Below are positions 5,979-61,572 of a DNA stretch of 64,000 nt, piece by piece. The position numbers were made by a program, and so were the translations under genes. The notes under the pieces were generated by a model. It did not search any database and was not told the origin of the DNA. It saw only the letters and a program-made list of their open reading frames with translations. How positions within the stretch are numbered: the stretch's first letter is position 1; every line of letters starts with the position of its first letter. Source of the stretch: Armatimonadota bacterium (GTDB lineage: Bacteria > Armatimonadota > SYMT01); contig JAWLHY010000005.1 in NCBI GenBank assembly GCA_041690135.1, positions 192,001 to 256,000 on the forward strand, written 5' to 3'.

Positions 5979-7148
5979 CTAACGGGAGACACGCTCCCAG
6001 GTGACGCGCTGGGTGCGGAACAGGAAGCGGAGAAACCCGCAAAAGAGCGCGTAGTTCATCAGATAGAAGTAGCTGACAGGACGGGTCCAGCGCGGTAGCT
6101 CGCGACCAGGAACGGCGGCATACGAGCGGGCCGCCACCAGGGCTCCGGCCAACTGGGCAACCGCCGTCAACTGGAAGAACTCGTGGTCGAGCAACATCAG
6201 ATTGGCGCCCGCCGCGGCCAGGAAGAAGAACGGGACCAGCCAGCGCAGGACCTTGTGGCCCCAGTAGGCGAAGGCGACGTTCCCAAAACTCGGGAGCAAT
6301 AGACGGCAGGTAAGCCCGAGTGCCTGAAAGTTGCCCGCCCCGATGCGTACCTTGCGGATCATCTCATCCCGCGCGGAGGCGCAGGCGGGCTCAACGGCCC
6401 GCGCGGCGGGCTCGAACCGCACCTGATAACGCTGCTCTAACACGCGCATCGAGAGAACGAAGTCCTCAACGACGGTCGAAGTCGGAAGCGGACAATAGAG
6501 GTGCCGGCGCAGCGCAAAGATGCCCCCGTTACAGCCGATGAGAAATCCGAGCGCACTCTCATTCCGCTTGATCCAGCCCTCATACTTCCAGTAGAGGCCT
6601 TCACCGGAGACCCCCCCTTCCTGCTCCAGGGTGAGTTCGCCGCTGACGCAGCCCACCTGGGGCTCCTGGAAAGGGGTGACCAGTTTCCGGAGCGCATCCG
6701 GTTCGAAGAGGGTGTTGGCGTCGGAGAAGACAAGAATGTCGGCCTCGGTCCGGGTTACGAGGTCATTCAGGACGGAAATCTTGCCGCGGCGTTCCTCGAA
6801 GCAGTAGGCGTGGAGGCGGGTATCCGTGCAGGCACGAAGCAGTTCCGCGGTAGCGTCTGTCGAACCGTCTGAGCCGACAATCAATTCGAAGCGGTCCGCC
6901 GGATAGTCGAGCTGCCAGGTGTTGCGAAGTTTGGCCTGAACGACCTGCTCCTCATTGAAAGCGGCTACAACCATGGCGATCCGGGGGAGTGGCTCCGTCA
7001 TATGCGGTTGCTTTGTGCCGCGGCCGGCCGTCCGCTGTTTCAGGCGGACCCAGACCGCCAACAGGCACGGAAACCCCACGTACGTGTAACCGATCAGGCC
7101 CCACGCTACGGCAAAGATCAACACTGAGAGGAACTTCGGATCGGGCAT
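5979..7148 (-). CDS. Glycosyltransferase family 2
   Basis: AFNEE, DGSTD, FSDAN, VEDF motifs and flanking TM helices. Confidence 0.9.
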   Translation of the reverse strand: MPDPKFLSVLIFAVAWGLIGYTYVGFPCLLAVWVRLKQRTAGRGTKQPHMTEPLPRIAMVVAAFNEEQVVQAKLRNTWQLDYPADRFELIVGSDGSTDATAELLRACTDTRLHAYCFEERRGKISVLNDLVTRTEADILVFSDANTLFEPDALRKLVTPFQEPQVGCVSGELTLEQEGGVSGEGLYWKYEGWIKRNESALGFLIGCNGGIFALRRHLYCPLPTSTVVEDFVLSMRVLEQRYQVRFEPAARAVEPACASARDEMIRKVRIGAGNFQALGLTCRLLLPSFGNVAFAYWGHKVLRWLVPFFFLAAAGANLMLLDHEFFQLTAVAQLAGALVAARSYAAVPGRELPRWTRPVSYFYLMNYALFCGFLRFLFRTQRVTWERVSR

Positions 7149-7157
7149 TGATGGCGG

Positions 7158-7904
7158 TTGGAGCGGGGTGATGAAAAGGGCCGGAACCTCGCTTGGCGAC
7201 CGGGTTACCGTCTGTCAACTGCGGGCGCGCGATTCGGCGTGCAAATCACCACGGGGAAAATGCGGCATGCTTGCCCGCTCCGCCAGGTCAAGCATGCGTG
7301 GGAGCAGCAGCTTTCCCGGGAGCGAAAGGGACGAGGTGTGAGTTTGCCGAGCGACGGTGAGAGGGAGAATGAGACGGATCCAAAGCGTCGCGAGAAGCGT
7401 TATGCCGTGGTTCTGCGCAGGCTCTTTGCGTGGCTCTTAATCCCGGAACTGCTTCTTGTTCTCGGCGCATCCGCCATGGTGAGCCTGAGCCTGAAACGGC
7501 TGGCGCTCACCGGAATCGCCGCCTTCTTCTTGCTGCTGCTGGCGGCATGCCGGATCGTTCCGGAAGGCTTACTCCCCTTCCGGGGGAAGTGGCTCCGGCG
7601 GATGCTGGCGGGACTGGCGGTACTAGGCCTCGCGTACGCGGGGCCGGTCGCGCTGATCCGAAAACTCTGCACCTATAACTGGACCTTGAACCAGGTGCAA
7701 CAGGGCATCGAGCGGCTGGCTACCTACCGGCCGCAAGCCCGTCTTCCCTTCTGGCTGGCGGACGTAGACCTTCCCCGCTGGATCGCGGGGGTGCCGATTA
7801 CCTTGGTGGTAGGTCTCGGGGCATTGGTTGCGCTCCTCCAGTTCAAGCTGCTCTGGGACGACTTGGGGGAGGAGCGCAGTACCGTACCGGCTCAGGAGCT
7901 GTAA
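7158..7904 (+). CDS. Hypothetical membrane protein (start probably ~7337)
   Basis: About four hydrophobic segments in the C-terminal two-thirds. Confidence 0.55.
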   Translation: MERGDEKGRNLAWRPGYRLSTAGARFGVQITTGKMRHACPLRQVKHAWEQQLSRERKGRGVSLPSDGERENETDPKRREKRYAVVLRRLFAWLLIPELLLVLGASAMVSLSLKRLALTGIAAFFLLLLAACRIVPEGLLPFRGKWLRRMLAGLAVLGLAYAGPVALIRKLCTYNWTLNQVQQGIERLATYRPQARLPFWLADVDLPRWIAGVPITLVVGLGALVALLQFKLLWDDLGEERSTVPAQEL

Positions 7905-8275
7905 ACCGTGTCCGGATCGATTTCCCGGGAAGCGATGACGTGCAACTCGCCTTCGCCGTCCACGGCGCGGAAAAAGCAGCTGCGGTAGCCTTCGTGGCAG
8001 GCCACTCCCTCTTGCCGCACGAGGATCAGGAGGCAGTCCTTATCGCAGTCGGTGCGGATTTCCACCACGTGCTGGAAGTGACCGGAAGTTTCGCCCTTGA
8101 TCCAGTACTTCTGGCGGCTCCGGCTCCAGTAGGTGACCCGGCGCGTCTCGAGGGTGCGGTCCACCGCCGCCTGGTTCATGTAGCCGACCATCAGGACTTC
8201 GTTGTTGTCCGCATCCTGGATCACGGCGGGCAGCAGCCCGTTGGCATCATACTTGAGGGTTTCCGAAAAGCTCAT
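7892..8275 (-). CDS. hisI: Phosphoribosyl-AMP cyclohydrolase
   Basis: YWSRSR..W.KGETSGH, DCDKD, ACHEGYRSCF. Confidence 0.95.
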   Translation of the reverse strand: MSFSETLKYDANGLLPAVIQDADNNEVLMVGYMNQAAVDRTLETRRVTYWSRSRQKYWIKGETSGHFQHVVEIRTDCDKDCLLILVRQEGVACHEGYRSCFFRAVDGEGELHVIASREIDPDTVYSS

Positions 8276-8289
8276 CGAGGTACTACTCC

Positions 8290-9081
8290 CTACTCGACAA
8301 CGTGTGTTGGTTGGTGCTGGGGGTCCCACCGGACGGGGACCCCACGCTCATACAGGTAGCGCTTCATTTCCCCGATCGAGTGGATGTTGTAATGGACGAG
8401 GGAGGCCACGAGGGCTGCTTCCGCCTTGCCTTCGGTGACCCCTTCGTGGATGTGTTCCAGTGCGCCGGCTCCCCCGGAGGCAATTACGGGAATCGGCACG
8501 GCTTCGGCGATCGCGCGGGTCACCGGCAGATCGTAACCGGCCTGGGTCCCGTCGGCGTCCATACTGGTGAGCAGGATCTCGCCCGCTCCCCTTCGGTAGA
8601 CCTCTTCAGCCCACCGCACGGCATCCATCCCCGTGGGGGTTCTCCCGCCGTGGATGTATACTTCGTACGACCCGTCCTCGCGCCGCTTGGCATCGATGGC
8701 AACCACCACGCACTGGGACCCGAACCGGTCCGCGCCCGTGGTGATCAGGTCGGGGTTCTGCACGGCGCTCGTATTGATGAAGATCTTGTCCGCGCCCGTT
8801 TTGAGGATCTCGCGCATGTCCTCTACTGTCCGAATACCTCCGCCCACGGTGAAGGGGATAAAGACCTCCTCGGCCACGCGGCGGGCCACGTCCAGCATGA
8901 TGGACCGCTTTTCGTGCGAGGCCGTGATATCGAGGAAGACGATCTCGTCCGCCCCTTCCGCGTCGTAGAGGCGGGCGAGGTCCACCGGGTCGCCGGCGTC
9001 ACGCGGGTTGAGGAACCGGACGCATTTGACAACGCGGCCCTCCTTGATGTCCAGGGCGGGGATGATGCGCTTCGCAACCAT
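8290..9081 (-). CDS. hisF: Imidazole glycerol phosphate synthase cyclase subunit
   Basis: [32 protein letters not shown]. Confidence 0.96.
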
Positions 9082-9090
9082 GATGCCGGC

Positions 9091-9828
9091 CTAATTCCTT
9101 CCCTGCAGGGCCGTCAGGGCCTCGGGCAGGCGTACCGCGCCCGTGTAGAGGGCCTTCCCGACGATGACGCCCTCCACTCCCGCCGCTTCCAACTCCGCCA
9201 CCCGTGCGATATCAGCGACACTCCCCACGCCACCCGAGGCGATGACTGGAATACCCGCGGTTTCGGCCAGCCGACGGGTGCTCTCCACGCTGGGACCCGT
9301 TCCGGTTCCGTCGGTAGCGATGTCCGTGAAGATGATGCGGCGCGCACCCGCGGCCTTCATTTCGGAAGCCAGGTCGGCAGCCGTCCATTCCGTCGTCTCC
9401 CGCCAGCCTGCGGTCGCGACTTTGCCGTCGCGGGCGTCCAGCCCCAGGATGAGGCTCTCGCCAAACTCACGGAAGAGATCGCTCGCGGTCTCCGGGTTTG
9501 CCGCCGCCGCCGTACCCACGATGGCTCGACTAATGCCGGCCTCCAGTACACGCTGCACGGCTTCCCGGTTCCGTACGCCACCACCCATCTGCACCGGTAT
9601 CCGGAGGGTGCGAGCGATGCGGGCGATAATCTCCAGGTTGACGGGTTCCCCGCTACGCGCGGCATCCAGGTCGACCACGTGAAGCCGCGTGGCGCCCTCC
9701 CCTTCCCAGCGGAGCGCCATCTCCACCGGGTCCTCGCCGAAGACCGTCTCCTGGGCATAGTCTCCCTGGTAGAGGCGGACGCACTTGCCGCCCCGGATAT
9801 CGACGGCCGGGATGATTTCGAACGACAT
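9091..9828 (-). CDS. hisA: ProFAR isomerase
   Basis: IIPAVDIRGGKCVRLYQGDY, HVVDLD, TDIATDG. Confidence 0.96.
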   Translation of the reverse strand: MSFEIIPAVDIRGGKCVRLYQGDYAQETVFGEDPVEMALRWEGEGATRLHVVDLDAARSGEPVNLEIIARIARTLRIPVQMGGGVRNREAVQRVLEAGISRAIVGTAAAANPETASDLFREFGESLILGLDARDGKVATAGWRETTEWTAADLASEMKAAGARRIIFTDIATDGTGTGPSVESTRRLAETAGIPVIASGGVGSVADIARVAELEAAGVEGVIVGKALYTGAVRLPEALTALQGRN

Positions 9829-9840
9829 CAGCTTATCCTT

Positions 9841-10467
9841 TTACAGCCTGCAAAAGTTGTCGAGAATGCGCAGTCCGGCCGCCCCGCTCTTCTCCGGGTG
9901 GAACTGGGTGGCGAACAGGTTGTCGCGGCTCAGGGCGGCGCAGAATTCCAGTCCGTGGTGGCAGGTAGCGGCCACTACCTGTGGAGCTTCAGGCCGGCAG
10001 TAGTAGCTGTGGACGAAGTACACCCGCACCCCGTCGTCCAGCCCGCGGAACAGCGGGTGGTCGCCAACCGGGTGAAGCTCATTCCAGCCCATGTGCGGAA
10101 TCTTCAATTCCGGATTGCCGTCGAAATCGAAACGAACCACCCGCCCTGGGACCAGGTCGAGGCCCTGGTGGATACCGAGTTCCTCACTCTCCGAAAGCAG
10201 TAACTGCATGCCGAGGCAGATGCCCAGAAAGGGGCGACCCGTCTCCGCGAAAGCACGCACGGCGTCCGCAAGAGTGCCTTCCCCTGCCTCTCCGTGGGAA
10301 AGGTGGTCCATCGCGGCGCCGAAGGCCCCCACTCCAGGCAGGATCAAACGGTCCGCCCCGCGGATGATCGCCGGGTCGGAAGTGATCTCCGCCGGATGCC
10401 CCAGCTTTTCCAGGGCCTTCTGCACGCTGCGCAGGTTGCCCATCCCATAATCTACAATGCCGATCAT
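9841..10467 (-). CDS. hisH: IGP synthase glutamine amidotransferase subunit
   Basis: DYGMGNLRSV, GICLGMQ, QFHPEKS. Confidence 0.96.
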   Translation of the reverse strand: MIGIVDYGMGNLRSVQKALEKLGHPAEITSDPAIIRGADRLILPGVGAFGAAMDHLSHGEAGEGTLADAVRAFAETGRPFLGICLGMQLLLSESEELGIHQGLDLVPGRVVRFDFDGNPELKIPHMGWNELHPVGDHPLFRGLDDGVRVYFVHSYYCRPEAPQVVAATCHHGLEFCAALSRDNLFATQFHPEKSGAAGLRILDNFCRL

Positions 10468-10509
10468 CAGGGGATCTCTTAGCTTTGTCGCAGGAAGGGC
10501 TGACACACG

Positions 10510-10545
10510 AAAACGCCGCGGCCCTTCCCAGGATGTCCGCGGCGT
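10510..10545 (-). terminator. his operon attenuator terminator
   Basis: Minus strand ACGCCGCGG-loop-CCGCGGCGT followed by TTT, between leader ORF and hisH. Confidence 0.75.
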
Positions 10546-10591
10546 CTCGGAAATGGATCAAGGCTCATCGGCCAGACACGCGCGCGGGCAC

Positions 10592-10645
10592 TCACCGATG
10601 ATGGTGGTGTCCGGAGGCGTGATGGAACTGGAACCGAGAGAGCAT
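10592..10645 (-). CDS. hisL: His operon leader peptide MLSRFQFHHASGHHHHR
   Basis: 17-codon ORF with 6 His codons, upstream of a terminator and hisH. Confidence 0.85.
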   Translation of the reverse strand: MLSRFQFHHASGHHHHR

Positions 10646-10652
10646 CAGCAGG

Positions 10653-10661
10653 GTTATAACA
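10653..10661 (-). promoter_or_regulatory. Extended -10 promoter of his leader
   Basis: TGTTATAAC (TGnTATAAC), 7 nt before the leader ATG. Confidence 0.6.
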
Positions 10662-10677
10662 CTGCGCGGGACGGTCG

Positions 10678-11487
10678 TCAAGTCAGCCGGTCTGCGGCCC
10701 TAGAAGCACGGTGCCATCGCAGCGTCTCGGAGAGCTTCTCCGCGTCCTCGCGCGCGGCGCGTTGGAACATAGCGAGGTCGGGTCCCCAGATCATCAGGCG
10801 AGCGCCCTCATCGAGACAGCGGCGCGCATAATCGGCTCCGGCAGGCATAATACCGGCAATCTTACCCGCCATCCGGGTGGCGCGGAAGGTGCGCCGGATC
10901 GCCTCCCACACAGCGGGATGCTCGAACTCCCAGGGAACCCCCAGGGACTGCGTCAGGTCGCCGGGACCCACCAGCAGGCAATCCACTCCGGGCACGGCGG
11001 CAATGTCCGCGGCATGCTCCACGCCGCGCGCCGTTTCGATCTGGAGAATGATCAGCAGATTTTCATTGCTTGAGGCGAAGTGCTGGGCGGGAAGAACGCC
11101 GCAGTAATCCGAGCAGTAGCCCATGTAGTAGACACCCCGCTTCCCCACCGGAGCGTACCGCGCCGCTTCCACCACCTCCCGGGCCTCTTCCACGCTTTCC
11201 ACGGCGGGCACCATGATCCCGCGCACCCCGGTCTCCAGGACGGAGAGGATGTCGGCCTTGGTGGGGCCGGCGACGCGGGTCAGGGGTACGATCCCATGGG
11301 CGTCGGCGGCCCGGACGAGCGCCTCCAACTCGCGGAGAGTCATCCCCGTGTGCTCCAGGTCTGCCAGCACGTAGTCGTAGCCGGCCTCGGCGGTGATGCC
11401 GACGACGTGAGGATCGGACGAGAGCATGATCAGGCCGACGGCGACGTCGTCCCGCAGGAGCTTTTGCTTGAGGAGGTTAGCGCGCAT
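10678..11487 (-). CDS. HpcH/HpaI aldolase family protein
   Basis: DLEH, GIMVP.V, QIETARG, GPGDL motifs. Confidence 0.9.
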   Translation of the reverse strand: MRANLLKQKLLRDDVAVGLIMLSSDPHVVGITAEAGYDYVLADLEHTGMTLRELEALVRAADAHGIVPLTRVAGPTKADILSVLETGVRGIMVPAVESVEEAREVVEAARYAPVGKRGVYYMGYCSDYCGVLPAQHFASSNENLLIILQIETARGVEHAADIAAVPGVDCLLVGPGDLTQSLGVPWEFEHPAVWEAIRRTFRATRMAGKIAGIMPAGADYARRCLDEGARLMIWGPDLAMFQRAAREDAEKLSETLRWHRASRAADRLT

Positions 11488-11516
11488 GGTGGAAACGGAG
11501 CCGGGTAGAAAAGAGG

Positions 11517-11550
11517 AAACCGGACGTGATTAACGTATCACGTCCGGTTT
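11517..11550 (-). terminator. Intrinsic terminator after redoxin gene
   Basis: AAACCGGACGTGAT/ATCACGTCCGGTTT 14-bp stem followed by a pyrimidine/U-rich tail on the minus strand. Confidence 0.7.
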
Positions 11551-11582
11551 GCTTGTCGCCGAGAGAAATCCGGAGGCGATGC

Positions 11583-12086
11583 TTACTTCCGCGCGAGGGC
11601 CTGGGTGACGGCGGCGTCGAGCTGCCTGGCATCCGCCCCCTCGATCACAGCGGCCACTTTCCCGTCTTTCCCGATCACAATATTCACCGGATAGCTCTGG
11701 ACGCCGAACCGGTCGAAGACCACGCTCTTGGCATCGTGAATGATCGGAAAGGTCGCCTTGACTTCCTTGCCGAACGCCGCGGCCTCTTCCAGTTTCTCGT
11801 CCGCGCTTACCGAGACGACGGTGAAGCCCTTCTTCCCGTACTTGGCCTGCAGTTTTTGAAGATGAGGATACTCCTCATGGCAGGGCCCTCAGTAGTAGCT
11901 GAAGAAGTTCATCAGCACGACCTTGCCTTTGTACTGGCCGGAACTGACGGTCTTCCCCTGCACCGACTTCCCGCTCCACGCGGGGGCGGCTTTGCCCTTC
12001 GGCACGATATCCGCGACCGCGGCCCCCACCCCCACCGTCATCGCGACGGCGACGGCGGCGCCCAGGCGCGCCCAACCCATGCTCAT
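11583..12086 (-). CDS. TlpA/redoxin-family selenoprotein (UxxC), UGA at 11889-11891 read as Sec
   Basis: Frame continues through TGA: ..VVLMNFFSYY-U-GPCHEEYPHLQKLQAKYGKKGFTVVSV..FPIIHD..FGVQSYPVNIVIGKDGKV..RK*; hairpin ATGAGGA-GTA-TCCTCAT 10 nt after UGA. Confidence 0.88.
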
Positions 12087-12280
12087 TCCAACGATCTCCT
12101 ATTTCAATGCCGGGACGGCAATGGTATAGACTGGGGCTATTGTAACCGCCGGCAAACCGGACGTCGACCCGCGGGAGCGGGGATTGTCACTTCTCCGGAG
12201 CCTTAGCGGTAAGACCCCGGTGGAAGGGCCGGGGTGCCGCTTTTCTTGAAATACGTTCCAGCATGGGAGGAGGTCAGCCG

Positions 12281-12979
12281 GTGATTGGAACTGCGATCAA
12301 TGTGGCGACGGTAGTGGTGGGCGGCGTGGCGGGGCTGGCGATCGGGAAACGGCTGCCGCCGGCCATCCGGGAGACCGTGATGCACGTCATCGGATTGGTG
12401 ACGATCGTCCTGGGCGTCTCCATGTTCCTCAAGAGCCAGAACCCGCTGATCCTGCTGGGAAGCCTGGTGCTGGGAGGGGTGACGGGAGAGCTGATACGCA
12501 TCGAAGAGGCGATCAACCGCCTGGGGGCTTACGCGGAAAGAAAGCTCACCGGAAGCACCGAAGGCGGTGACTTCGCGCGCGGCTTCGTTACGACCAGCAT
12601 CCTGTTCTGCGTGGGACCCATGACGCTGCTCGGCTGTCTGAATGACGGTCTGCGCGGCGATTACACGTTGCTGGCGGTGAAGGCGACGCTGGATGGCATC
12701 GGAGCGGTCGCCTTTGCCTCGGCCCTGGGATGGGGAGTGCTGCTATCGGCGGGGACGGTGCTGGTGGTGCAGGGGAGCCTGACACTGGGCGCGCGGGCCC
12801 TGGAGCCGTTGATCCGGGATCCGGGGATGCAGGCGGAGCTGTTCGCGGCGGGCGGCGTGATGATGCTGGCGTTAGGGTTACGGCTGCTGGAGTTGAAGCA
12901 GATCCGGGTGGGGAATCTGCTCCCCGCGCTGCTCTACACTCCGCTCCTCGTGCTTATCGCTAGAGCCTTCGGAGGGTGA
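12281..12979 (+). CDS. DUF554 family membrane protein
   Basis: IGTAINV, LFCVGPMT.LG..DG, KATLDG. Confidence 0.9.
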   Translation: MIGTAINVATVVVGGVAGLAIGKRLPPAIRETVMHVIGLVTIVLGVSMFLKSQNPLILLGSLVLGGVTGELIRIEEAINRLGAYAERKLTGSTEGGDFARGFVTTSILFCVGPMTLLGCLNDGLRGDYTLLAVKATLDGIGAVAFASALGWGVLLSAGTVLVVQGSLTLGARALEPLIRDPGMQAELFAAGGVMMLALGLRLLELKQIRVGNLLPALLYTPLLVLIARAFGG

Positions 12980-57694: not shown

Positions 57695-57828
57695 GTGTGG
57701 AAGTAGGTGTGTGTGGAAGTAGGTGTGTGTGGAAGTAGGAGATGAAGAAAGGCTTCTAAATTCCAGGTCACTCCCTCACCCCCTCACTACTCCAATCCCC
57801 TACCCCCATACTTCCCTACCCCCACACC
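57695..57828. repeat. (GTGTGGAAGTAGGTGT)x3 with inverted C-rich partner
   Basis: 57695-57739 tandem; CCCTACCCCCATACTTCCCTACCCCCACACC at 57798-57828. Confidence 0.8.
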
Positions 57829-57866
57829 ACAGCTTCTTTTCCACTACCCCTCCCCTGTTTGCCTGT

Positions 57867-58994
57867 CTACCGTCTTGCCGGGCGCTTCGTAGATTTTCCG
57901 AAGCGGTGGCTGTAACCAGCGAGGATGAAGTAGTCCGCGAAGGTGGCGTCTCCCTCGAAGTTGCTGAAGTCGGCCTGGCGGTTGCGCTGGGTGGCGACCG
58001 GAACCGTGATTGAGAACGTGTCGTTTCCGCGGGTGTACACGAGACCCGGCTCCACAAAAATCGAGTATCCGGGCCGCCGCCAACCGTTGCTGTCGCCGAG
58101 CACGTCGTTGGGGGGAACGCCTTCGATCCGCCCGGCCAGGACCACGCTCAAGCCGCGCGCGGTCGGCACCGGGAGCGCTACCCCCACCCGGGCCAGGTAC
58201 TGATCCGGTACCGAGTTGATCTTGAGGTGTGCCAGGTTCGCGGGAACGTTTTGTCCGAACAGGTTCACCAGGATGGAAGGGGTCCCGTTCGTGTCCCGGG
58301 GATTCATGAGGTAGGTGCCGGAAGCGAACCAGGTGGCGGTTCCCACCTGACGGAACGCCTGGAGGTCCAGGATGATCCCCCACCCCCCGTCCCCCGGTTG
58401 GATGGAAATGTCCACCGGCTTCACCTGGGGGTTCTGGCCGGTGAGGCGGGGGAAGCGGTCCTGAGCATCGTAGTTGCCGGTGGGCGCCTTAACGCCAAGT
58501 CCGAGTGAAATATTGTGCTTCGTGTGCTTGTCGCAGTCCAGCAGCCAGTAACGGGCGGTCAGCGAGACATCTCCCAGTCCACTCGCGCTCTGTACCTGCC
58601 GGGGACCTGGCGTGGGGGCGGTAGGAAGCGGAATAGACCAGCTGCCGTAAACGAGGATCGGCACGCTTAGCGTGAGGTTGAACTGGCGGTTAACTGCGTA
58701 CGTGGGAGCCAGGTCGAGGATCTGCTGTTTGTTGACCACAAACGTGCCGAGATGCTCGCGCTCCACCTGCTCCTCGGTTCCTTTGAAGTGACGATCGGAA
58801 CGGAGATGGCGATAACTGGCAAAGATCTGCCACTCGCCCGGATCGAGATAGGGGCTTTGTTGGGCGCCAAGCACGGGCGCCGTCTGTCTTGCGACCACTC
58901 AGCCCTGGGCCGCAGCGGGCCGCGAGGCCGACAGACTCGCCGCGGCGAGCAAGCCGCCCAGCAACGCCTTCACCGCGTGTTCCCGGAATCGCAT
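57867..58994 (-). CDS. Secreted beta-barrel 'transporter' family protein with in-frame UGA (probable Sec) at 58899-58901
   Basis: ATG 58994 with GGGAG RBS; signal peptide ..RPAAAQG-U-VVARQTAP continues in frame into a barrel-like ORF (GLGDVSL, GVKAPTG, IQPGDGGWG, EPGLVY). Confidence 0.8.
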
Positions 58995-59230
58995 CAGTTG
59001 ATTCTCCCGTTGTCGCACGTGCCGCCTACCCTTGCGGCGACCACGTTTACGGCAGGTTGGCTCGGGCTGGCGGCAGATCCTTGCTTGCATGGTTAAAAGG
59101 CGCTAAGTGTCGCGGCGTGGAAGGGGAACCTTAACGTCTATTAATCCGGGCGCCGCTCTTGTCGTACGAGAGCCCGCGGAACAGCGCAAAAATGTTTTGC
59201 GGACCCGTCTCAAACTTTTCCGGGTCCGGA

Positions 59231-59388: not shown

Positions 59389-61572
59389 ATGAGTGGCAGC
59401 ACGTCTCGCCTTCAGGCGATCTCCGCCGTAACGAACTACAAGCCGGTCACCTCGGCCGCCGACTTCGCGGGAATGCCGTCGGGTAAGCTGTACGGCTCCA
59501 ACGTCTTCAGCATGGCGGAGATGGAGAAGCGGCTCCCCAGGGACGTTTTCAAGTCCCTCAAGCGCACGATCGAGAAGGGTGAAAAGCTCGACATCGCCGT
59601 GGCCGACAGCGTGGCGGCCGCGATGATGGCCTGGGCGATCGAGAAGGGGGCTACGCATTACGCGCATGTGTTCTTCCCGCTGACGGGGTTGACAGCGGAG
59701 AAGCACGACAGTTTCCTCGTGCCGGACGGCCGGGGCGGTGCGCTGGCGGAGTTCTCCGGAAAGCAGTTGATCCAGGGTGAACCGGACGCTTCCAGCTTCC
59801 CCTCCGGCGGCATCCGCGCTACTTTCGAAGCCCGCGGATACACCGCCTGGGACATCACCAGCCCGGCTTACATCCTGGAGAACCCGAACGGATCCACCCT
59901 CTGTATTCCCACCGCGTTCGTATCGTGGACGGGTGAGGCGCTCGACAAGAAGACGCCGGTCCTGCGTTCGATGCAGGCCCTGAACGCCCAGGCCCAGCGG
60001 ATCCTCAAGCTGTTCGGCCACACCGACGGCGCGATGGTCAGCTCGACGGCCGGCCCCGAGCAGGAGTACTTCCTGATCGACCGCAACTTCTACTTCGCGC
60101 GGCCGGACTTGCTGAACGCGGGACGCACCCTCTTCGGCGCGAAGCCGCCCAAGGGGCAGGAGTTCGAGGACCACTACTTCGGCGCCATTCCGGAGCGGGT
60201 GCTGGCTTTCATGATGGAAGTCGAGCGGGACCTCGTTAAGCTCGGCGTACCGGTGAAGACGCGCCACAACGAAGTCGCCCCCGCCCAGTATGAGATTGCG
60301 CCGACCTTCGAAACGGCGAACGTGGCGACCGACCACCAGCAGTTGATCCAGATCACGCTGAAGCGCGTCGCCGAGAAATACGGGATGGCGTGCCTCCTGC
60401 ACGAGAAGCCGTTCGCGGGCGTGAACGGATCGGGCAAGCACGTGAACTGGTCGCTCGGCAGCGCTACCCGCGGCAACCTGCTGGATCCGGGCGATAACCC
60501 GCACGATAACGCGCAGTTCCTGGTGTTCTGCGCCGCCGTGATCCGCGCGGTCCACAAGTTCGCTCCGCTGCTCCGCGCCGTGGTGGCCCATGCGGGCAAC
60601 GACCACCGGCTGGGCGCCAACGAAGCGCCGCCCGCAATCATCTCGATCTTCCTCGGTGACCAGCTGGCGGACATCTTCGAGCAAATCAAGGCGGGTGGAG
60701 CCACGAGCTCCAAGGGCAAAGGGACTCTCACCGTGGGGGTAGACGTGCTGCCGCCCCTGCCGAAGGACGCCGGCGACCGCAACCGGACCAGTCCGTTCGC
60801 CTTCACGGGCAACCGGTTCGAGTTCCGGGCCGTGGGTTCGAACCAGTCGATCGCCGGGCCGCTGGTGGCGATGAACACGATCGTCGCCGAGTCCCTCGAC
60901 TACTGTGCCTCGCAATTGGAAGCCGCCACCGGTGGGGACCCGTCCAAGCTGAATGCGGCGGTTCAAGAGCTGCTGAAGAGCATCATCGACGAGCATGGCG
61001 CCGTGATCTTTAACGGCGACGGCTACTCGGAAGAGTGGCACCAGGAAGCGGAGCGTCGCGGGCTGCCTAACCTGAAGACCACGGTAGACGCCATTCCGGC
61101 GCTGACTTCGCCGGAGGCGCTCGACCTGTTCAATAAGTACTCGGTCCTCTCGCCTCGCGAACTGGAGAGCCGCCAGGAGATCTACCTGGAGCAGTACTGC
61201 AAGACGGTCAACGTCGAGGCGCTGCTGACCCTGAAGATGGCCCGCACGATGATCTACCCGGCCGGGGCGCGCTACCTGTCGTCGCTGGCCGAGACCTACA
61301 CCGGTCTGAAGGCGGCCGGGGTGGATGGGGATACCAGCACCCTGGAAGCGGTGAACGACCTGGTGAAGGGACTGCAGGCTGCCATCGCCAAGCTGGAGAG
61401 TGTGATGGGGCACAACGGCGCGGAATCGTCGCTCGACGAGGCGACGCATTTCGGGCGCGAGGTGCTGCCGGCGATGCTGGAGGTCCGGAAGTACGCCGAC
61501 GCCCTGGAAGGGGTCGTGCCGGACGACTTCTGGCCGCTGCCCACCTACCAGGAAATGCTGTTCATCAAGTAG
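59389..61572 (+). CDS. Glutamine synthetase type III
   Basis: [25 protein letters not shown]-like [48 protein letters not shown]. Confidence 0.96.

Follow-up and report, generated by a model that had tools for sequence, protein, structure and literature searches.

A large family of outer-membrane beta-barrels predicted to carry a single selenocysteine on the N-terminal arm

The closest described relatives of the protein considered here are the COG4313/PF13557 channels (Pput2725, 4rl8) and FapF (5o67), which are of the same fold class, have a detectable sequence relation to it and, like it, carry an N-terminal segment ahead of the first strand. The protein is encoded on the minus strand, at positions 57867..58994, of a 64,000-nucleotide stretch of an Armatimonadota genome (GCA_041690135.1, contig JAWLHY010000005.1; the whole stretch is referred to below as the window), in a reading frame crossed by a TGA codon that we interpret as encoding selenocysteine (Sec). 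According to the accessible text of the structure paper, the N-terminal 14 residues of the solved COG4313 channel lie in the lumen, which they enter from the periplasmic side (PMC4493636); the word 'cysteine' is absent from the main text of that paper, which gives no sign of Cys or Sec on this segment. In the window family, by contrast, an invariant Q-G-(U/C) appears to start the mature chain, and Sec forms are in the majority. Because the PF13557 match of the window protein spans residues 115–180 only, we regard the family as a distinct, distant subfamily with invariant motifs of its own.

Barrel selenoproteins have been described before: the accessible text of a 2026 review on prokaryotic selenoproteins covers the GSU2204-family MtrB/PioB-type proteins (NF041027) and a TonB-dependent receptor with an FCYXU motif (NF049945) (PMC13188914), the latter being found in the accessible text of PMC12013277 as well. 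These proteins likewise show that Sec is possible in bacterial outer-membrane barrels; they are other barrel families, neither of whose models was matched by the window protein or by 60 members of its family. Indeed, when the window protein was compared with NCBIfam there was no match at E values up to 1, and among the 60 members the sole barrel model matched was that of FapF, weakly, in 17 cases.

Three further systems are relevant for comparison. Exported selenoproteins with a UxxC motif that resemble TlpA or thiol-disulfide isomerases (cd02966; accessible text of PMC13188914), one of which is encoded in the window at 11583–12086, combine a thioredoxin fold with the UxxC pair, whereas the Sec of the barrel stands alone and outside any redox fold. 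The thiosulfate transporter YeeE/YedE (PF04143, motif GUxSG) is counted as a selenoprotein in the accessible text of PMC13188914. It occurs in a sulfur context similar to that of the DsrE/TusA neighbours described below, but is a helical inner-membrane protein without sequence relation to the barrel. Cys residues line its pathway, and it has a TusA-like partner. SoxY is a soluble periplasmic sulfur carrier whose C-terminal Cys sits on a flexible 'swinging arm'. We use it as a working analogy, there being no homology: one Cys on a mobile arm carries sulfur covalently, and a covalently bound cargo on the arm of the barrel is proposed by this analogy.

Sec in this barrel family was not reported in the literature that we searched, the supplementary tables of which were outside the search and might list the family. 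PF13557, COG4313 and the word 'phenol' are all absent from the accessible text of PMC13188914, and the barrel family goes unmentioned in the accessible text of a 2022 review (PMC9312934), of the deep-Sep paper (PMC12013277) and of a 2022 preprint on eight new families (10.1101/2022.07.06.499078). Judged from its sequence and from those of its homologues, the window gene is a genuine, previously unannotated selenoprotein gene and stands for a large family of outer-membrane barrels in which Sec predominates. Its UGA would be decoded in the ordinary way; the novelty lies in the protein context, where one Sec sits at the far end of the N-terminal arm of a COG4313/FapF-like channel.

The reading frame and the UGA column

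The gene comprises 375 codons, including the UGA at codon 32 (U32; 58899..58901, assigned from the column comparison and the Sec machinery), plus a TAG stop codon (57867–57869). The initial annotation had described a signal-peptide open reading frame (ORF) that has a ribosome-binding site, starts at ATG 58994, ends in TGA at 58899–58901 and stays open for 343 further codons; we re-read the frame and confirmed this, with the continuation on the minus strand reaching TAG 57869–57867. A Shine–Dalgarno-like GGGAGA, read from the sequence, lies at 59003..59008 (minus strand), separated by an 8-nt spacer from the ATG (58994–58992). The 31 codons ahead of the TGA (MRFREHAVKALLGGLLAAASLSASRPAAAQG) resemble a signal peptide of the Sec-pathway type, of which residues 1–29 (58908..58994; MRFREHAVKALLGGLLAAASLSASRPAAA) show, by eye, a charged start, a 14-residue hydrophobic core and an AxA site, ending in AAA before QGU. 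The segment after the TGA has no signal peptide of its own.

One rival explanation is that the TGA is a true stop and that the barrel starts at the GTG (58898) lying directly 3' of it, the upstream 31 codons being a separate leader or a chance ORF, or else that the gene is a pseudogene. In its favor, this GTG is the annotated alternative start, giving a protein of 343 residues, and public protein sets hold the window gene in exactly this form (P0002); moreover, the hairpin downstream of the TGA is not significant when the window sequence is taken singly (see below). Against it, the 343-residue form would lack a signal peptide even though its fold is that of an outer-membrane barrel. Further arguments against it come from the homologues.

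Close relatives were analyzed by a six-frame search with the read-through protein in 41 genomes, including the window genome (G000); the barrel gene was found in seven of these, G000 counted. G000 holds a second copy on its contig 3, 56% identical and also a Sec form. Eleven full-length matches were obtained in the relatives, nine with TGA and two with TGC, in each case exactly after an invariant A-Q-G. For a wider set, a pattern search was carried out with one genome per species, and the best 80 of 461 relatives were examined: 63 had TGA, 12 TGC and two TGT, and three were not resolved by the script, namely L094 (Cys by eye), L110 (a stop after A-D-G) and L105 (N-terminal part not found). These three and the fragment L033 are left out of the tree and the column counts.

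Combining both sets, TGA is present in 72 and TGC or TGT in 16 of the 88 resolved loci (of 91), with no other residue at this column and with Q-G ahead of it in 88 of 88; the Cys/UGA pairing that the initial annotation had named as the test of its proposal is thus borne out. The loci are not all independent, as L030 equals L047 and L112 equals L113 in the tree, and 65 of the 72 TGA loci are distinct in the downstream sequence. In the tree of the 88 proteins the Sec/Cys label switches at least nine times. The Cys homologues run continuously across the column with the same signal peptide and QGC motif, and the AQGC start of the mature chain that the initial annotation had named for related barrels can be seen, for example, as AQGCIAIR in L056, L068 and P0072. 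Sequencing error at the TGA is ruled out, because the TGA recurs in many genomes.

These data bear directly on the true-stop explanation. Since the codon following the TGA is a non-start codon (GTC, ATC, GTT, ATT, ATA or GCA) in 27 of the 72 TGA loci, the GTG of the window gene is not a general start, and the stretch from the stop to the annotated starts, which vary in position, is conserved at the protein level. The continuity of the Cys homologues and the retention of TGA in 72 loci that bear various taxon labels, alongside a covarying hairpin absent from the Cys forms (see below), likewise argue against it. We therefore consider a true stop extremely improbable.

Three loci differ in layout. 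L028, L031 and L032 (G002, contig 287) are three tandem barrel copies with one in-frame TGA each. In L028, L031 and L031b the TGA stands at the QG column, and the peptide following Sec (QG-U-xxPKVGGAAL) and the hairpin are different from those of the other loci. Locus L033 (G005, contig 2, 15630–16178), a 49%-identical match to residues 131–317 only, flanked by stop codons at either end, is probably what remains of a gene.

The family is large. A profile search gave 1516 clusters at 50% identity for E values up to 0.001, 885 at 1e-10 and 369 at 1e-30. Among the best 150 cluster representatives, 62 have a signal peptide and QGC by a strict pattern, and about a dozen variants were recognized by eye; most of the other representatives start just past the column, as a gene caller would place the start after a TGA. 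A signal-like N-terminus lacking the Cys occurs in one of them, P0260. Similarly, QGC is found in 31 of the 120 closest database proteins; the remaining 89 lack QGC within their first 90 residues, and most of them begin at or just past the Sec/Cys column. Acidobacteriota (Thermoanaerobaculia, Vicinamibacterales, Polarisedimenticolia) and Armatimonadota predominate among the contig labels; Planctomycetota, Gammaproteobacteria, Verrucomicrobiia, Binatia and Bacteroidota account for a few. L067, L079, L085, P0005 and P0045 bear the labels 'Patescibacteria group' or 'Actinomycetota', bacteria in which no outer membrane would be expected; these labels probably reflect metagenome mis-binning.

The SECIS-type hairpin and the selenocysteine machinery

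A hairpin that begins 17 nt downstream of the UGA and has G as the second loop nucleotide had been pointed out in the initial annotation as compatible with the bacterial Sec insertion sequence (SECIS); it is present at 58881–58863. The structure GGCGCC-CGUGCUU-GGCGCC (58863..58881, minus strand) lies inside the codons for T-A-P-V-L-G-A. On its own, the window hairpin does not exceed what chance would give in this GC-rich DNA: its z-score is -0.58, and 57 of 200 shuffled sequences fold as well or better. An Rfam scan of 58700–59100 with E values up to 10 returned a chance snoRNA match only.

The family gives a different picture. In a gap-free alignment of the 65 distinct TGA sequences, a 7-bp helix is formed by columns 20–26 with 34–40 (window 58863–58881), enclosing the loop CGUGYUY and falling within the codons for x-A-P-V-(F/L/I)-G-A. 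Its cells are paired in 91.2%, compared with 82.0% in column shuffles and 23–47% when the 3' arm is slid. Double-change cells number 32, compared with 9.2 in shuffles, and the covariation score was reached by none of 500 shuffles. As several of the double changes affect synonymous third positions (for example GCG/GGC to GCA/GGT in L072 and L083, and the outer pairs A-U, C-G and G-C), conservation of the protein alone does not explain them. Five TGA loci (L026, L028, two copies in L031, and L062), in which a different peptide follows the Sec, do not fit the common helix and have other hairpins; the counts above and below include them.

The Cys forms, whose peptide is nearly identical, served as the decisive control. 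The set of six inner pairs is complete in 59 of the 65 distinct TGA sequences but in none of the 15 distinct Cys sequences; for the stem Pro codon, 60 of the 65 TGA forms use CCC and 12 of the 15 Cys forms use CCG. The mean folding energy of the 52 nt following the codon hardly differs (-15.9 kcal/mol for TGA forms versus -14.5 for Cys forms), so that the two groups are separated only by the register-specific helix test.

One Cys form stands apart. L104, on a contig labelled Gammaproteobacteria, has TGC and keeps both the CCC Pro codon and five of the six inner SECIS pairs; its nearest relatives, L112 and L113, are both Sec forms. The largely retained hairpin and these relatives suggest a recent switch from Sec to Cys, as far as can be judged from the sequences.

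The genome has the means to decode UGA as Sec, as had been suspected. G000 (9.1 Mb in 25 contigs) encodes selA, selB and selD as well as tRNA-Sec, all above curated cut-offs; the tRNA-Sec scores 67.2 bits and has the anticodon UCA (tca in ARAGORN). The genes for SelA, SelD and tRNA-Sec lie together on contig 1 (1149453–1152359), followed by tRNA-Ala. The selD gene contains one in-frame TGA and is therefore a selenoprotein gene itself. In the sample of relatives, selA is present in all seven barrel-bearing genomes (32 of 41 overall), and it is also present in all five genomes behind TGA loci labelled Gammaproteobacteria, Thermoanaerobaculia, Planctomycetales, Verrucomicrobiia and Vicinamibacterales.

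A second selenoprotein gene is found in the window itself. As stated in the initial annotation, the minus-strand gene at 11583–12086 encodes a UxxC redoxin; we confirmed that it is an exported protein of the AhpC/TSA-Redoxin (TlpA/Redoxin) family with a signal peptide and with U66, encoded by TGA, in YYUGPCH. This organism thus exports selenoproteins.

Considering the column, the hairpin and the machinery together, we are strongly confident that 57867..58994 is one continuous gene for an exported barrel, whose UGA would be decoded as Sec through SelB and the downstream SECIS-type hairpin.

The barrel, the cleavage site and the N-terminal arm

Several comparisons agree on the nature of the protein. 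Pfam PF13557 (Phenol_MetA_deg) matches residues 115–180 with 26 bits against a cut-off of 22 bits, and a profile of 60 members detects FapF in the PDB (E 6.8e-10). AlphaFold2 models the precursor with a predicted local distance difference test score (pLDDT) of 89.7 and a predicted template modelling score (pTM) of 0.85, the mature chain with 92.0 and 0.89, and the barrel domain (residues 55–365; 57900..58832) with a pLDDT of about 95. In a Foldseek search with the model, the top match was FapF (5o67; E 1.6e-13, template modelling (TM) score on the target 0.72), followed by the COG4313 channel Pput2725 (4rl8; E 5.1e-9, TM 0.67 on the target) and then by FadL and OmpG. As Pfam, profile, AlphaFold2 and Foldseek agree, the protein is, by prediction, an outer-membrane beta-barrel of the COG4313/FapF kind; the earlier view of an exported outer-membrane barrel with Sec at the mature start rather than in a redox fold is thereby upheld. 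Charged residues invariant in the barrel are R62, D94, R132, K169, D195, R269, R289, E291, R307 and E315, and the motifs QPGDGGWG, NSVPDQY and GFRRPGY are likewise invariant.

The putative cleavage site is well conserved. The AxA site consists of small residues in 88 of 88 loci: position -1 is A in 69, G in 17, S in one and C in one, and position -3 is A in 69, S in eight, T in five, V in three and G in three. Depending on the position of the cut, Sec would be residue 3 of the mature protein (cut after AxA, which we prefer) or residue 1 (cut after AQG, which would comply with the small-residue rule as well). We favor Q-G as part of the mature protein since it is invariant in the Cys forms too.

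A further rival explanation takes AQG-C/U for a lipobox-like motif, with the cut directly before Cys/Sec and this residue lipid-modified, which would make the Sec forms seleno-lipoproteins. The residue before Cys/Sec is G in 88 of 88 loci and that at -3 is small, and the strict invariance of Q-G resembles the recognition motif of a processing enzyme. The lipobox consensus is [LVI][ASTVI][GAS]C. The barrel sequences deviate from it, having A, G, S or C at -3 and Q at -2 in 88 of 88 loci, and an AxA directly before the Q suits signal peptidase I. Moreover, a thioether-type anchor would not evidently gain from Sec, yet 72 of the 88 loci are Sec forms with a maintained SECIS. We therefore regard lipid modification as highly improbable.

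The mature chain would thus begin with an N-terminal arm (residues 30–54, QGUVVARQTAPVLGAQQSPYLDPGE; 58833..58907, minus strand), which contains Sec and the conserved R-Q-x-A-P-V-x-G motif. Across the family this arm of about 25 residues ahead of the first strand is conserved as Q-G-U/C-[IV]-x-x-R-Q-x-A-P-V-x-G.

Fusions, gene neighborhood and the proposed function

The barrel is repeatedly associated with thioredoxin-like proteins. A C-terminal thioredoxin-like domain with CGPC, matching the NCBIfam models TsoB and DsbD, is fused to the barrel in P0017, P0020, P0021, P0023 and P0024, which are close Cys forms, and a C-terminal Redoxin/TlpA-like domain is fused to it in L097, P0127, P0201 and P0181. 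In L094, L100, L102, L104, L107, L112 and L113, the barrel gene is immediately followed by a gene for a CxxC redoxin that has a signal peptide of its own. L100, L102 and L107 had also come up as barrel–redoxin fusions; these candidates were rejected, being separate downstream genes over-extended upstream in another frame. The first two 'clusters' of neighbors were likewise dismissed, as they were overlapping-frame ORFs of the barrel itself. The UxxC redoxin of the window (11583–12086), which is 30% identical over 88 residues (E 4e-8) to a barrel-fused domain found elsewhere, is a candidate periplasmic partner of the Sec arm, encoded 47 kb away.

A second association is with sulfur-relay proteins. 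Genes for DsrE and TusA adjoin the barrel gene in L047/L030, L086, L104, L112, L113 and the paralogue L114; the TusA is fused there to an OsmC, Meth_synt_2 (MetE-like) or DUF455-like domain, and the arrangement varies by locus. These loci form one clade of eight rows with a Shimodaira–Hasegawa-like approximate likelihood ratio test (SH-aLRT) support of 100, which includes the paralogue of G000 itself and whose contig labels are Armatimonadota, Acidobacteriota and Gammaproteobacteria; the window gene is the sister of this clade (support 97). At L114 (G000 contig 3, 54000–73000), the barrel paralogue lies at 9026–10102 (minus strand), next to TusA-containing genes (6418–7035 and 7542–8831), a DsrE gene (7140–7532), a weakly Cu2_monoox_C-like gene (10439–11836; 33.5 bits) and a Redoxin-family gene (11897–12685) that has CPIS instead of CxxC.

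We propose that the arm handles sulfur or selenium (S/Se) cargo. By homology with the COG4313 channels, both ends of the barrel probably face the periplasm; if so, with an orientation assumed from the related barrels, the fused domains would lie beside the N-terminal arm, and the arm may enter the lumen as does the N-terminal segment of the solved COG4313 channel. The single selenolate (a thiolate in the Cys forms) would then serve as a reactive handle, forming a reversible Se–S bond with S/Se cargo in the channel, and periplasmic CxxC proteins of the thioredoxin, TlpA or DsbD-gamma kind would release the selenolate; in one clade the cargo would be handed on to the DsrE/TusA sulfur relay. Because a lone nucleophilic Se or S on a mobile arm is partnered with periplasmic CxxC modules, we favor a covalent or ligand-exchange role on a thiophilic cargo at the channel. 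Taking the Sec barrel and the chalcogen-handling arm together, we lean, modestly, toward this explanation as a whole; for its mechanistic part, that the arm handles S/Se cargo with redox recycling, the balance appears close to even, tilting slightly in favor.

A number of observations weigh against this proposal. (i) AlphaFold2 does not place the arm: residues 20–40 of the precursor have a pLDDT below 50, and the first two ten-residue blocks of the mature-chain model have means of 48 and 63. (ii) There appears to be no built-in resolving residue, since 48 of the 88 proteins lack any Cys more than 12 residues past the Sec/Cys column and position +6 is seldom occupied by Cys (one of 72 Sec forms, five of 16 Cys forms). 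(iii) No neighbor is universal, the commonest, a histidine kinase, occurring in 12 of 89 loci; redoxins with CxxC are found at 9 and DsrE at 6 of the 87 loci searched, and those loci are phylogenetically clustered. (iv) The window copy has no thioredoxin-like, DsrE or TusA gene among the ORFs of window 44–64 kb. (v) One TGA form, L076 4019–5593 (identical to P0123), carries two C-terminal HMA domains (GMTCDHC and GMTCALC; E 2.1e-30), a fusion that points to metals and not to chalcogens.

The HMA fusion leads to the rival that accepts the same selenoprotein and takes the Sec arm for a ligand of soft metals (Cu(I), Hg(II), Ag, Cd or As(III)), whose selenolate would bind the ion in or at the channel and pass it by ligand exchange to periplasmic CxxC carriers, the thioredoxin-like partners just keeping the selenol reduced. 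A lone Cys/Sec without a resolving partner suits a ligand, the Cu2_monoox_C-like gene mentioned above adjoins the G000 paralogue, and metal-related selenoproteins, namely a mercuric transport protein, the CopZ family and the SO_0444 Cu/Zn efflux family, appear in the accessible text of PMC13188914. However, HMA domains are fused to the barrel at a single one of the 87 loci, compared with nine that have redoxins and six that have DsrE/TusA, and no Cu, Hg or As resistance operon is found among the recurrent neighbors. A single selenolate would furthermore be a weak site, and no conserved His, Met or second Cys was seen on the arm. We consider this rival unlikely, though far from negligible.

The redoxin partners themselves allow another reading, in which Sec would protect the outer membrane or periplasm as an antioxidant residue, either of the peroxidase type or sacrificial: for example, organic or lipid hydroperoxides entering a channel for hydrophobic molecules would be reduced, and the thioredoxin-like partner would recycle the selenol. 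The partners are indeed AhpC/TSA-Redoxin family proteins, TusA–OsmC fusions are encoded near the barrel in L104 and L112, and the presumed substrates of COG4313 channels are hydrophobic or amphipathic (accessible text of PMC4493636). Yet a peroxidase would have no need of a barrel, and the invariant charged residues within it suggest a specific bound ligand. In addition, the partner redoxins have a CxxC of the TlpA/thioredoxin type and not the active site of peroxiredoxins. An antioxidant role thus seems quite improbable. Overall, we rank S/Se species first, soft metals second, a peroxidase-like guard third and a lipid anchor last.

A bolder form of the chalcogen proposal is conceivable. A thiol-bearing outer-membrane protein that activates elemental sulfur has been described as a hypothesis (accessible text of PMC3440390), and membrane proteins of elemental-sulfur activation lack experimental confirmation according to the accessible text of PMC10045233. 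The barrel family could be this long-postulated protein, activating insoluble or hydrophobic chalcogen (elemental S or Se): the arm would break open an S8 or Se ring, or take on sulfane sulfur, and deliver it in covalently bound form to the periplasm, where CxxC reductases would unload it before the DsrE/TusA relay takes over. Sec would then outnumber Cys (72 of 88 loci) because a strong nucleophile is required outside the cytoplasm. As the sole basis for this reading is the DsrE/TusA context of one clade together with the type of channel, we regard it as distinctly doubtful.

Next to the window gene lie a gene for a type III glutamine synthetase and others that have no match in Pfam. The glutamine synthetase gene (59389–61572, plus strand; with GSIII_N, Gln-synt_C and Gln-synt_C-ter) is transcribed divergently from the barrel gene. 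Just downstream of the barrel stop, window positions 57695–57860 contain a purine-rich tract with runs of G on the strand of the gene and a perfect 16-nt tandem repeat of 2.8 copies (57695–57739); the region downstream of the paralogue also looks repetitive in translation.

The finding adds a large family to the bacterial selenoproteome, outside thioredoxin-like folds and outside the cytoplasm. It also exposes a systematic annotation error, in that proteins missing their N-terminal part look like cytoplasmic 'transporters'. Because Sec forms are in the majority and the SECIS has been kept through at least nine switches, the single residue at the tip of the arm would seem to perform a chemically demanding job, and the repeated association of the barrel with CxxC reductases, HMA domains and DsrE/TusA gives testable hypotheses as to what that job may be, including the activation of elemental sulfur at the outer membrane.

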